DNA from: Escherichia coli
GTDB taxonomy: Bacteria > Pseudomonadota > Gammaproteobacteria > Enterobacterales > Enterobacteriaceae
Reading direction: 5' to 3' (one strand)
NCBI RefSeq assembly: GCF_003790525.1
Contig: NZ_CP033635.1
Length of the DNA: 64,000 bases
In this document: one piece after another, positions 31,956 through 46,980 of the stretch
Numbering within the stretch: the first letter of the stretch is position 1
Layout: every line of letters starts with the position of its first letter
The notes under the pieces: generated by a model
What the model was told of the DNA's origin: nothing
Seen by the model: only the letters and a program-made list of their open reading frames with translations
Database searches by the model: none
Made by a program: the position numbers and the translations under genes

Positions 31956-32399
31956 ATGAGTATGTCAACATCCACTGAAGTCATCGCTCATCACTGGGCA
32001 TTCGCTATCTTTCTTATCGTTGCCATTGGCCTGTGTTGCCTGATGCTGGTAGGCGGTTGGTTTTTAGGCGGTCGCGCACGCGCAAGGTCGAAAAACGTTC
32101 CGTTTGAATCCGGTATCGACTCGGTCGGCTCCGCCCGCTTACGCCTGTCCGCCAAGTTTTATCTGGTGGCCATGTTCTTCGTTATCTTCGACGTTGAAGC
32201 GCTGTATCTGTTCGCATGGTCAACCTCTATCCGCGAAAGCGGCTGGGTAGGCTTTGTGGAAGCTGCAATTTTTATTTTTGTGTTACTGGCAGGTCTGGTT
32301 TATCTGGTGCGTATTGGCGCGCTGGACTGGACGCCCGCGCGTTCACGCCGCGAGCGTATGAACCCGGAAACGAACAGTATCGCTAATCGTCAACGCTAA
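31956..32399 (+). CDS. nuoA: NADH-quinone oxidoreductase subunit A
   Basis: 147-aa membrane ORF; first gene of the nuo cluster. Confidence 0.95.
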
Positions 32400-32414
32400 C
32401 CGCGAGGCATTAAG

Positions 32415-33077
32415 ATGGATTATACGCTCACCCGCATAGATCCCAACGGTGAGAACGACCGTTACCCCCTGCAAAAGCAGGAGATCGTAACCGACCCTCT
32501 GGAGCAAGAAGTTAACAAAAACGTGTTTATGGGCAAGCTCAATGACATGGTTAACTGGGGTCGTAAAAACTCAATTTGGCCGTATAACTTCGGTCTTTCC
32601 TGCTGTTACGTTGAGATGGTGACTTCGTTTACCGCGGTGCATGACGTGGCGCGTTTTGGCGCAGAAGTATTGCGTGCTTCGCCGCGTCAGGCTGACCTGA
32701 TGGTGGTGGCAGGAACCTGCTTTACCAAAATGGCACCGGTTATTCAGCGTCTGTATGACCAGATGCTGGAACCCAAATGGGTTATCTCAATGGGTGCCTG
32801 TGCCAACTCTGGCGGTATGTACGATATTTATTCCGTTGTGCAGGGCGTTGATAAATTCATCCCGGTTGATGTGTATATCCCGGGCTGCCCGCCGCGTCCT
32901 GAAGCGTACATGCAGGCACTGATGCTGTTGCAGGAATCTATCGGCAAAGAACGTCGTCCGCTCTCCTGGGTGGTTGGCGATCAGGGCGTTTATCGCGCCA
33001 ATATGCAATCAGAGCGCGAACGCAAGCGCGGTGAACGCATTGCCGTAACCAACCTGCGTACACCTGACGAGATTTAA
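32415..33077 (+). CDS. nuoB: NADH-quinone oxidoreductase subunit B
   Basis: 220-aa ORF with Fe-S binding cysteines (CCYVEM...GCPP). Confidence 0.95.
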
Positions 33078-33182
33078 TTTGCGCCTGTCGGCAAAGGGAT
33101 TTTTCTTCGCTTATTCCTAAATCTATTTCGCGAAGCTTACTGCGCCGACAGTCACCACGGACCATTTGCAATGGTGAACAAT

Positions 33183-43899: not shown

Positions 43900-43986
43900 T
43901 ACCCCCAGTCCGAAGAGAATTTTCTGTCGTGAGAATTCGTTGAAAATCCGGTCCTGACGGGACTTTTACAAGGAATAAAGATCGCC

Positions 43987-45516
43987 ATGTTACTACCCTG
44001 GCTAATATTAATTCCCTTTATCGGCGGCTTCCTGTGCTGGCAGACCGAACGCTTTGGCGTCAAGGTGCCGCGCTGGATCGCGCTGATCACCATGGGATTG
44101 ACGCTGGCGCTGTCGCTGCAACTGTGGTTGCAGGGCGGTTATTCACTGACGCAATCCGCCGGAATTCCGCAGTGGCAGTCTGAATTCGACATGCCGTGGA
44201 TCCCGCGTTTTGGTATCTCTATCCATCTCGCCATTGACGGGCTATCGCTGCTGATGGTCGTGCTGACCGGTCTGCTCGGTGTGCTGGCGGTACTCTGTTC
44301 GTGGAAAGAGATCGAAAAATACCAGGGCTTCTTCCACCTCAACCTGATGTGGATCCTGGGCGGCGTTATCGGCGTGTTCCTTGCCATCGACATGTTCCTG
44401 TTCTTCTTCTTCTGGGAAATGATGCTGGTGCCGATGTACTTCCTGATCGCACTGTGGGGGCATAAAGCCTCTGACGGTAAAACGCGTATCACGGCGGCAA
44501 CCAAGTTCTTCATTTACACCCAGGCGAGTGGTCTGGTGATGTTGATCGCCATCCTGGCGCTGGTATTTGTTCACTACAATGCGACTGGCGTCTGGACCTT
44601 CAACTATGAAGAGCTGTTGAATACGCCAATGTCCAGTGGTGTGGAATATCTGTTGATGCTGGGCTTCTTCATCGCGTTTGCGGTGAAAATGCCGGTGGTA
44701 CCGCTGCATGGCTGGCTGCCGGATGCGCACTCACAGGCTCCGACCGCCGGTTCCGTGGACCTCGCGGGGATCTTGCTGAAAACCGCTGCTTACGGTCTGC
44801 TGCGTTTCTCCCTGCCGCTGTTCCCGAACGCGTCGGCAGAGTTCGCGCCAATCGCTATGTGGCTGGGTGTTATCGGCATCTTCTACGGTGCGTGGATGGC
44901 CTTCGCCCAGACCGATATCAAACGTCTGATCGCCTACACCTCGGTTTCCCACATGGGCTTCGTGCTGATTGCTATCTATACCGGCAGCCAGTTGGCCTAC
45001 CAGGGCGCGGTAATCCAGATGATTGCGCACGGCTTGTCAGCGGCGGGTCTGTTTATTCTTTGTGGTCAGCTTTATGAACGTATCCATACCCGCGACATGC
45101 GCATGATGGGCGGTCTGTGGAGCAAGATGAAATGGCTGCCAGCACTGTCGCTGTTCTTTGCGGTGGCAACGCTTGGGATGCCAGGCACCGGTAACTTCGT
45201 CGGCGAATTTATGATTCTGTTCGGCAGCTTCCAGGTTGTCCCGGTGATTACCGTTATCTCTACCTTTGGGCTGGTCTTTGCATCTGTTTATTCGCTGGCG
45301 ATGTTGCATCGCGCTTACTTCGGTAAAGCGAAAAGCCAGATTGCCAGCCAGGAACTGCCAGGGATGTCGCTGCGTGAGCTGTTTATGATCCTGTTGCTGG
45401 TGGTGCTGCTGGTACTGCTGGGCTTCTATCCGCAGCCGATTCTGGATACCTCGCACTCCGCGATTGGCAATATCCAGCAGTGGTTTGTTAATTCCGTTAC
45501 TACTACAAGGCCGTAA
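43987..45516 (+). CDS. nuoM: NADH-quinone oxidoreductase subunit M
   Basis: 509-aa antiporter-like membrane ORF. Confidence 0.95.
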   Translation: MLLPWLILIPFIGGFLCWQTERFGVKVPRWIALITMGLTLALSLQLWLQGGYSLTQSAGIPQWQSEFDMPWIPRFGISIHLAIDGLSLLMVVLTGLLGVLAVLCSWKEIEKYQGFFHLNLMWILGGVIGVFLAIDMFLFFFFWEMMLVPMYFLIALWGHKASDGKTRITAATKFFIYTQASGLVMLIAILALVFVHYNATGVWTFNYEELLNTPMSSGVEYLLMLGFFIAFAVKMPVVPLHGWLPDAHSQAPTAGSVDLAGILLKTAAYGLLRFSLPLFPNASAEFAPIAMWLGVIGIFYGAWMAFAQTDIKRLIAYTSVSHMGFVLIAIYTGSQLAYQGAVIQMIAHGLSAAGLFILCGQLYERIHTRDMRMMGGLWSKMKWLPALSLFFAVATLGMPGTGNFVGEFMILFGSFQVVPVITVISTFGLVFASVYSLAMLHRAYFGKAKSQIASQELPGMSLRELFMILLLVVLLVLLGFYPQPILDTSHSAIGNIQQWFVNSVTTTRP

Positions 45517-45522
45517 ATCGCC

Positions 45523-46980
45523 ATGACAATAACTCCACAAAACCTGATCGCACTGCTACCGTTGCTGATCGTCGGCTTGACGGTGGTGGTTGTGATGCTC
45601 TCCATTGCGTGGCGACGCAATCATTTCCTCAACGCTACGCTCTCGGTTATTGGGCTTAACGCGGCGCTGGTTTCGCTCTGGTTTGTCGGCCAGGCGGGCG
45701 CTATGGACGTTACGCCGCTGATGCGCGTTGATGGTTTCGCCATGCTTTACACCGGGCTGGTATTGTTGGCGAGCCTCGCCACCTGTACTTTCGCCTACCC
45801 GTGGCTTGAAGGCTATAACGACAACAAGGACGAGTTCTACCTGTTGGTGTTAATTGCCGCCCTGGGCGGGATCCTGCTGGCGAATGCCAACCATCTGGCG
45901 TCTCTGTTCCTCGGTATCGAACTGATCTCTTTGCCGCTGTTTGGCCTGGTCGGTTACGCTTTCCGCCAGAAACGTTCGCTGGAAGCCAGTATCAAATACA
46001 CCATTCTCTCTGCCGCAGCGTCTTCTTTCCTGCTGTTCGGTATGGCGCTGGTGTATGCGCAGTCTGGCGACCTGTCGTTTGTCGCGCTGGGTAAAAACCT
46101 CGGCGACGGTATGCTCAACGAGCCGCTGTTGCTGGCAGGTTTCGGCCTGATGATTGTTGGCCTCGGCTTCAAACTCTCTCTGGTGCCGTTCCACCTGTGG
46201 ACGCCAGACGTATACCAGGGCGCGCCTGCGCCGGTTTCCACTTTCCTGGCGACGGCGAGCAAAATCGCTATCTTCGGTGTGGTGATGCGTCTGTTCCTCT
46301 ACGCACCGGTGGGTGACAGCGAAGCGATTCGGGTGGTGCTGGCGATTATCGCCTTTGCCTCCATCATCTTCGGTAACCTGATGGCGCTGAGCCAGACCAA
46401 TATCAAACGTCTGCTCGGTTACTCATCTATCTCTCACCTCGGCTATCTGCTGGTGGCGCTGATTGCGCTGCAAACGGGCGAGATGTCGATGGAAGCGGTA
46501 GGGGTTTACCTGGCCGGTTATCTGTTCAGCAGCCTCGGCGCGTTCGGCGTGGTCAGCCTGATGTCCAGCCCGTATCGTGGCCCGGATGCTGATTCCCTGT
46601 TCTCTTACCGCGGTCTGTTCTGGCATCGTCCGATCCTCGCGGCAGTGATGACGGTGATGATGCTGTCTCTGGCCGGTATTCCGATGACGCTGGGCTTTAT
46701 CGGTAAGTTCTACGTGCTGGCAGTCGGTGTTCAGGCACACTTGTGGTGGCTGGTGGGCGCCGTGGTTGTCGGTTCGGCAATCGGCCTCTACTACTACCTG
46801 CGCGTGGCGGTGAGCCTGTATCTTCACGCCCCGGAACAACCGGGTCGTGATGCGCCGTCAAACTGGCAGTACAGCGCGGGCGGTATCGTGGTGCTGATCT
46901 CTGCACTGTTGGTACTGGTGCTGGGTGTATGGCCACAACCGCTGATTAGCATTGTGCGGTTAGCCATGCCGCTGATGTAA
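45523..46980 (+). CDS. nuoN: NADH-quinone oxidoreductase subunit N
   Basis: 485-aa antiporter-like membrane ORF; last gene of the nuo cluster. Confidence 0.95.

Follow-up and report, generated by a model that had tools for sequence, protein, structure and literature searches.

How far does translation of one cistron depend on translation of the one before it, in an operon where two genes have become one, several neighbours share nucleotides and others are set well apart? The nuo operon, whose product is the proton-pumping NADH:quinone oxidoreductase (respiratory complex I), raises this question in a stretch of Escherichia coli DNA of 64,000 nucleotides (contig NZ_CP033635.1), here called the window. 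Positions 31956–46980 run exactly from the nuoA start to the nuoN stop, and the PGAP annotation of a record with one mismatch to the window has 13 genes there, nuoA to nuoN, in order and all on the + strand. Only one mismatch separates the window from E. coli strain 165 over 49,501 compared bases, and the nuo region is found in 5421 of 5426 complete E. coli genomes. The locus is almost certainly the canonical nuoABCDEFGHIJKLMN operon for complex I, with a fused NuoCD and a mosaic of junction types. That E. coli has the fusion, the 13-gene operon and ATGA or TAATG overlaps is textbook knowledge, and practically all sequenced strains share these features. The initial annotation, a reading of the letters alone, had called the architecture known, and this is borne out by the fused NuoCD of solved E. 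coli complex I structures and by two papers (PMC4453560, PMC7050243). The value of the present analysis is mainly that of a positive control, as that reading placed genes, fusion and overlaps to the base. The genes are the following, with nuoA, B, E, G, I, J, M and N as in the PGAP annotation of the near-identical record.

31956–32399, + strand: nuoA, 147 aa
32415–33077, + strand: nuoB, 220 aa, 15 nt after nuoA
33171–34973, + strand: fused nuoCD, a single ORF with no internal stop and two Pfam domains
34976–35476, + strand: nuoE, 166 aa, 2 nt after nuoCD
35473–36810, + strand: nuoF, 445 aa, ATGA overlap of 4 nt with nuoE at 35473–35476
36863–39589, + strand: nuoG, 908 aa as annotated
39586–40563, + strand: nuoH, 325 aa, ATGA overlap with nuoG, strong Shine-Dalgarno AAGGAGG before its start
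40578–41120, + strand: nuoI, 180 aa, 14 nt after nuoH
41132–41686, + strand: nuoJ, 184 aa, 11 nt after nuoI
41683–41985, + strand: nuoK, 100 aa, ATGA overlap with nuoJ
41982–43823, + strand: nuoL, 613 aa, ATGA overlap with nuoK
43987–45516, + strand: nuoM, 509 aa
45523–46980, + strand: nuoN, 485 aa, 6 nt after nuoM

For nuoG there is an alternative, in-frame ATG at 36857, two codons upstream, which gives 910 aa. The K-12 MG1655 counterpart (b2288–b2276) has the same 13 genes, order, overlaps and gaps, the 163-nt nuoL–nuoM spacer included; the proteins are distinguished by seven residues overall and the spacers inside the operon by a single base, the nucleotide divergence of about 1.9% being nearly all synonymous. 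It is unlike the window in having its nuoCD annotated from the second ATG (596 aa) and in carrying, downstream of nuoN, three genes that the window lacks: yfbN, yfbO and yfbP.

Upstream, the preceding gene, lrhA, is followed by a structure that is likely its terminator, setting it apart from the nuo promoter region.

31362–31409, + strand: hairpin just 3′ of lrhA, with 19-nt arms that are 89% complementary, followed by the T-run TTTTTTTT

Scans of 31300–47100 gave fewer promoter-like sites than in shuffled sequence and a number of terminator-like sites within chance. Long antisense ORFs face nuoCD (480 aa), nuoL (481 aa) and nuoG (332 aa); with nothing annotated there in the matching record, they were taken to be shadows of codon-biased genes.

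Four of the 12 junctions within nuo overlap (E/F, G/H, J/K and K/L), and two have very short gaps (nuoCD/E, 2 nt; nuoM/N, 6 nt). At three the gap is 11–15 nt, each with its own Shine-Dalgarno sequence, and long spacers stand at the remaining three (nuoB/CD, 93 nt; nuoF/G, 52 nt; nuoL/M, 163 nt). The overlaps described at the outset are thus there, but 'extensive' overstated them, given the three long spacers. Outside nuo the overlaps in the window are these.

1403, + strand: usg/truA, 1-nt overlap (TAATG)
5355–5365, + strand: folC/dedD, 11-nt overlap with a GTG start, missing from the initial annotation
11783–11786, + strand: hisQ/hisM, 4-nt overlap (GTGA)
56933–56936, + strand: menD/menH, ATGA overlap, the sole listed pair with published experimental coupling
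58563, + strand: menB/menC, 1-nt overlap
59522–59525, + strand: menC/menE, ATGA overlap
61633–63617, − strand: arn overlaps, with arnD/T 1 nt at 63617, arnT/E 4 nt at 61965–61968 and arnE/F 1 nt at 61633

Every overlap of 1–4 nt that had been listed proved exact: eight are of 4 nt (nuoE/F, nuoG/H, nuoJ/K, nuoK/L, hisQ/M, menD/H, menC/E and arnT/E; ATGA in each, except GTGA for hisM) and four of 1 nt (usg/truA, menB/C, arnD/T and arnE/F). A convergent 7-nt overlap of pmrD and arnF had also been missed. Altogether 13 of the 50 co-directional junctions in the window overlap, and by 4, 1 or 11 nt only, which fits the genome-wide pattern, strongly dominated by overlaps of 4 nt and 1 nt (PMC10666635).

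Such stop/start overlaps are the commonest type of prokaryotic junction and have been linked to coupling by termination-reinitiation, which experiments have established for ATGA pairs, menD/menH of E. coli among them (PMC6728339, PMC10666635). Coupling declines with distance and is reportedly near-abolished at about 20 nt (PMC6728339, PMC10666635); the role of the Shine-Dalgarno motif in it is variable in the literature. When coupling geometry is taken as a co-directional pair with a 4- or 1-nt stop/start overlap or a gap of up to about 10 nt, it is found in the window at the 12 pairs with such overlaps and at nuoCD/E (+2) and nuoM/N (+6). The claim that the overlaps indicate tight translational coupling holds for menD/menH (PMC6728339, PMC10666635), and for the nuo pairs it is carried by geometry. 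The known coupled pairs menD/menH, hyfH/I and astD/B have the same ATGA or TAATG geometry, and the first of them is in the window; for these pairs coupling is experimental, whereas at nuo, his, arn and usg/truA it is read from the arrangement of the codons. The searched literature yielded no coupling experiment on any nuo junction. From this geometry we infer coupling at the nuo overlaps: at E/F, G/H, J/K and K/L, and also across the short gaps of CD/E and M/N, the terminating ribosome would most likely reinitiate on the next cistron. After the spacers of 93, 52 and 163 nt, which far exceed the distance of about 20 nt where published coupling is lost, the downstream gene (nuoCD, nuoG or nuoM) would have to be initiated independently. 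Coupling is not uniform along the nuo operon, since it is broken by three long spacers of high conservation.

The overlaps could instead be a by-product of compaction, or of drift of start and stop codons, with each nuo cistron initiated independently. Shine-Dalgarno pairing at overlapped starts is as good as that of other genes (mean −6.0 versus −5.4 kcal/mol for non-overlapped starts in the window, p = 0.22, no difference). It ranges there from +0.6 kcal/mol (arnE) to −11.4 (nuoH), and the sequences before nuoH and nuoK (−9.5) rank with the strongest of the window and could support initiation of their own; moreover one ATGA pair, bioB/F, showed no coupling in a reporter assay (PMC6728339). 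Against this, coupling was seen in four of the five native ATGA pairs of E. coli that were assayed, menD/H of this window included (PMC6728339), and genes whose products are subunits of heteromeric complexes show a 4.5-fold enrichment of short overlaps (PMC6728339, PMC10666635). The restriction of overlaps to 4, 1 and 11 nt among 50 co-directional junctions, and the identity of the nuo overlap junctions in the diverged strains K-12 and BL21, also argue against it. Independent initiation throughout is accordingly improbable, and reinitiation at the overlaps is the preferred reading.

The three long spacers differ in what they contain.

33078–33170, + strand: nuoB–nuoCD spacer, 93 nt, with one variable site among 6 strains
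36813–36855, + strand: nuoG RNA motif (Rfam RF01748), which fills the nuoF–nuoG spacer with a hairpin of 7 bp and its conserved flanks
43862–43902, + strand: REP-like hairpin, very stable relative to shuffles, within the 163-nt nuoL–nuoM spacer (43824–43986)

The predicted fold of the nuoB–nuoCD spacer is no more stable than those of its shuffles (z −0.66). Upstream of nuoG the RF01748 match reaches 50.3 bits, where the gathering score is 33, and covers the full model (1–43), and the 52-nt spacer that holds it is invariant in 6 strains. The nuoL–nuoM hairpin has a folding energy of −26.1 kcal/mol (z −6.1), with none of 200 shuffles as stable, and is present in 4779 of 5426 E. coli genomes. It has the REP trait of being an imperfect palindrome of about 35–40 nt in a transcribed intergenic region, and presumably resembles the REP (repetitive extragenic palindromic) consensus. 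With a 48-nt query a median of 1 and a maximum of 3 places per genome were found at E <= 1e-3, a search that in a 28-Gb database lets only near-identical copies pass; in the window, a pattern search for the 18-nt 3′ arm with up to 3 mismatches gave no second copy. In 724 genomes (about 13%), those of BL21 and O157:H7 among them, the whole nuoL–nuoM spacer is swapped for an unrelated, ERIC-like palindrome of 230 nt. The short nuo spacers are, for their part, nearly invariant among E. coli strains.

It is a tentative and rather doubtful proposal that the long spacers serve the operon as functional punctuation instead of being neutral gaps, the roles that they might have being judged from their content and conservation. 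Were it true, the alleles at nuoL–nuoM could set differing mRNA stability or rates of NuoM and NuoN synthesis, with strain-level differences in the stoichiometry or assembly of complex I. The dimorphism could be used to ask how palindromic elements between cistrons adjust the synthesis of subunits in a large complex with 1:1 stoichiometry.

C and D are joined by fusion. As first described, NuoC and NuoD are one polypeptide: a single ORF with zero internal stops encodes both Pfam domains, Complex1_30kDa (PF00329) at residues 50–178 and Complex1_49kDa (PF00346) at residues 329–600, and neither an in-frame stop nor a frameshift is seen between the C and D domains. Comparison with the NuoC and NuoD of Legionella gives a NuoC domain at about 50–178, a linker at about 175–217 and a NuoD-homologous part at about 213–600; the NuoC (30 kDa-type) domain is tied by a linker of some 40 residues to the NuoD (49 kDa-type) domain of the quinone site. 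The length of 596 aa given for the product counts from the second ATG, 33183 (K-12 b2286 and PDB 7awt_D), and the first ATG (33171) gives 600 aa (PGAP and PDB 7p61_C); both annotations are in use, and the length depends on which of the nearby ATGs is chosen. There is no good Shine-Dalgarno sequence before either. The product is identical at 600 of 600 residues to chain C of the E. coli complex I structure PDB 7p61. Nor is there a separate nuoD, as had been claimed: tblastn found no second nuoC- or nuoD-like sequence, and so no independent nuoD ORF, elsewhere in the window. In structures from Thermus, Paracoccus and Mycobacterium, C and D are separate chains, and the fused form is almost exclusive to 'clade E' of bacterial complex I (PMC4453560). 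That NuoD is also made separately from an internal start in the linker, which would leave the fusion only partial, is hardly credible, and the candidate Met206 was rejected: it is 12 residues ahead of the conserved LNLGPNHP motif, with the Legionella NuoD start 8 residues ahead, but Met194, Met206 and Met216 have weak Shine-Dalgarno pairing ahead of them (−3.5 to −5.9 kcal/mol), NuoCD is a single chain in solved structures, and engineered genetic separation of NuoC from NuoD abolishes complex I activity (PMC7050243).

Alignment with a 14-gene nuo operon, the check proposed in the initial annotation, bears on the origin of NuoCD. In Legionella adelaidensis (NZ_LR134433.1) nuoA–N follow the E. 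coli order, with 40% identity for NuoD and 48% for a conserved NuoC block of 79 residues, but nuoC (226 aa) and nuoD (417 aa) are separate, with an ATGA overlap between them, where E. coli has one ORF. No further junction overlaps are annotated there (in a PLSDB table that is without a nuoG row, nuoF/G and nuoG/H being left out); its nuoK/L has a 1-nt gap where that of E. coli overlaps by 4 nt. The tail of Legionella NuoC (47 aa) and the head of its NuoD (8 aa) together are near the E. coli linker in length. The fusion plausibly came about when a small indel hit a stop/start junction between nuoC and nuoD like that of Legionella. The Legionella operon, with a NuoD only about 40% identical, shows what the ancestral junction may have looked like but is not itself the ancestor. 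On a megaplasmid of Sinorhizobium meliloti (CP050559.1) NuoC and NuoD are also homologous (about 40% identity) and nuoB/C overlap by 4 nt, but 16 nt separate nuoC from nuoD, and the genes are rearranged: J and K come first, then antiporter-like genes, M and N, and last A–G.

A comparable fusion of a NuoC-like N-terminal domain to a NuoD-like domain is that of HycE, the large subunit of E. coli formate hydrogenlyase (PDB 7z0s_E), which aligns over both NuoCD domains at about 25% identity and has been described as a paralogous fusion (PMC7050243). Its C-terminal domain holds a [NiFe] site instead of the quinone site, and splitting is tolerated by HycE though not by NuoCD (PMC7050243).

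The nuo operon (nuoA-nuoN, specifying respiratory complex I) had been placed by the initial annotation at 31956-46980, which is exactly the distance from the nuoA start (31956) to the nuoN stop (46980). The region is close to universal in the species, with a megablast query of 31500-47200 matching 5,423 of 5,426 complete E. coli genomes, several at 100% identity and most at 95-99%. Of 49,501 bases compared with E. coli strain 165 (NZ_CP020509.1), one is different (position 61470, in arnF, A versus T), and because of this the strain 165 (PGAP) annotation is directly transferable to the window. 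Gene order is pdxB-usg-truA-dedA-accD-folC-dedD-cvpA-purF-ubiX-argT-hisJQMP ... pta-ackA ... lrhA-nuoA..N and then, after nuoN, yfbM-yfbL-yfbK-elaD-rbn-elaAB-menFDHBCE-pmrD-arnFETD. All junctions were recomputed from the window sequence.

Gene junctions in the window (+, gap in nt; -, overlap in nt)
nuo, A to F: A/B +15, B/CD +93, CD/E +2, E/F -4
nuo, F to K: F/G +52, G/H -4, H/I +14, I/J +11, J/K -4
nuo, K to N: K/L -4, L/M +163, M/N +6
usg/truA -1; hisQ/M -4 (GTGA)
men: menD/H -4, menB/C -1, menC/E -4
arn: arnD/T -1, arnT/E -4, arnE/F -1
folC/dedD -11, with a GTG start
61247-61253: pmrD/arnF, convergent, 3′ ends sharing 7 nt

The overlaps first reported in nuo, usg/truA, hisQ/M, men and arn are all exact; the last two entries were absent from that list. 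The observation of a fused nuoCD within an overlapping operon is confirmed, and its reading as architecture that is already known is supported, with caveats.

All four nuo overlaps (E/F, G/H, J/K, K/L) are ATGA. Thirteen of the 50 co-directional junctions in the window overlap, by 4 nt in eight, 1 nt in four and 11 nt in one, with no other lengths. This matches the published genome-wide distribution, where 4-nt and 1-nt overlaps are the commonest by far (PMC10666635). Measurement of both mRNA and protein by Huber et al. showed that four of five native E. coli ATGA pairs are coupled by termination-reinitiation, menD/menH (overlapping here at 56933-56936) among them (PMC6728339). Coupling is lost rapidly as the genes move apart, being almost abolished at about 20 nt and, for menD/H, abolished at 38 nt, and short overlaps are 4.5-fold enriched in genes of heteromeric complexes (PMC6728339, PMC10666635). 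Under published distance criteria (-8 to +10 nt, coupled; more than 20 nt, independent), six nuo junctions are predicted to be coupled (CD/E, E/F, G/H, J/K, K/L, M/N) and three independent (B/CD, F/G, L/M), with A/B, H/I and I/J ambiguous. Coupling at the nuo overlaps is a reasonable inference. Shine-Dalgarno strength did not distinguish overlapped starts from the others.

The nuoCD ORF (33171-34973) has zero internal stops, and its product carries Complex1_30kDa (NuoC) at residues 50-178 and Complex1_49kDa (NuoD) at residues 329-600 by Pfam. That no separate nuoD exists was borne out by tblastn of the window with each NuoCD domain separately, which found nothing besides nuoCD. The length initially given, 596 aa, is one of two conventions: it is that of the K-12 (MG1655) annotation and of structures such as 7awt and 7nyr, whose chain begins at residue 5, but PGAP gives 600 aa, and the translation from the first ATG matches chain C of PDB 7p61 (E. 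coli complex I) at 600/600 residues. Shine-Dalgarno pairing is poor at both ATGs (-3.2 and -2.8 kcal/mol). The fusion is nearly confined to clade E complex I (PMC4453560). Genetic splitting of E. coli NuoCD abolished complex I activity; HycE, a paralogous fusion, withstands splitting (PMC7050243).

Separate C and D chains are present in the solved structures from Thermus, Paracoccus and Mycobacterium, and chain 7q5y_B (586 aa), whose deposited name is 'subunit C/D 2', aligns over most of NuoCD. Annotated operons with separate nuoC and nuoD were found by tblastn on plasmid records. On a Sinorhizobium meliloti megaplasmid 16 nt lie between the two genes that are one in E. coli. A replicon of Legionella adelaidensis carries a nuoA-N run of the classical 14-gene kind; there nuoC, of 226 aa, and nuoD, of 417 aa, fused in E. 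coli, are joined by an ATGA overlap. Alignment to the Legionella proteins ends conserved NuoC at E. coli NuoCD residue 174 and begins conserved NuoD at 218; the 47 tail and 8 head residues of Legionella compare with an E. coli linker of 43, which implies a fusion close to an end-to-end join. We infer that a small indel at such an ATGA junction would have sufficed to make it, in line with a general remark that fusions of neighbouring cistrons arise most simply through frameshifts (PMC7050243).

Three spacers within nuo are long. The 52 nts between nuoF and nuoG correspond to the nuoG RNA (RF01748, 36813-36855; 50.3 bits, gathering score 33), a hairpin of 7 bp whose flanks are conserved and which was first described as a candidate cis-regulatory motif in Enterobacteriales. 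It is the sole Rfam family at gathering score in the 64-kb window, which has no tRNA genes. The nuoB-nuoCD spacer (93 nt, 33078-33170) has neither significant predicted structure nor an Rfam match. Between the window strain, K-12 and BL21 there is variation at 7.7% of four-fold degenerate sites but at none of 193 spacer bases outside nuoL-nuoM (binomial P ~2e-7 taking the four-fold rate, 0.013 taking the all-CDS rate). In a set of six diverged E. coli strains, one site varies in the B-CD spacer and no site does in the F-G spacer. From this low variation, the nuo spacers outside nuoL-nuoM appear to be under purifying selection.

E. coli has two versions of the nuoL-nuoM spacer. The majority version, found in the window, K-12 and most strains, is 163 nt (43824-43986) and contains, at 43862-43902, a REP-like hairpin of very high stability (-26.1 kcal/mol, z -6.1) that resembles the REP consensus in sequence. 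The BL21 spacer is 230 nt (11925-12154 of its sequence, L006) and does not align with it; this allele occurs at ≥99% identity in 724 of 5,426 genomes, O157:H7 included. It folds as a long palindrome (z -4.6), and its central ~118 nt are a dispersed repeat (per-genome median, 4 places), with a further copy between pheM and pheS. The allele agrees at 18 of 21 positions (0/500 shuffles as high) with an ERIC core that we rebuilt from the ERIC1R and ERIC2 primers, and its centre is an ERIC-like palindromic repeat.

Flanking the operon, lrhA lies between two unusually long non-coding regions, 919 nt from divergent alaA (29469-30387) and 629 nt to nuoA (31327-31955). The latter, the known complex nuo promoter region, differs from K-12 by 9 bases and one indel. 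On the other side, nuoN and convergent yfbM are 67 nt apart (46981-47047), whereas K-12 has ~2.6 kb there with yfbN, yfbO and yfbP, all missing from the window's lineage. At the 5′ end of yfbL (48600-48630, minus strand) a run of 8 As, 7 in K-12, directly follows the ATG, which is thus out of frame with the remaining ORF. PGAP starts the gene at a non-canonical ATA (48616); the next canonical in-frame start, GTG at 48472, gives 273 aa, and K-12 yfbL has 323. It is possibly a pseudogene or a slippage-prone tract. The G+C minimum of the window, 0.38 (50001-52000), coincides with elaD (50601-51809), an annotated deubiquitinase, and is consistent with horizontal acquisition.
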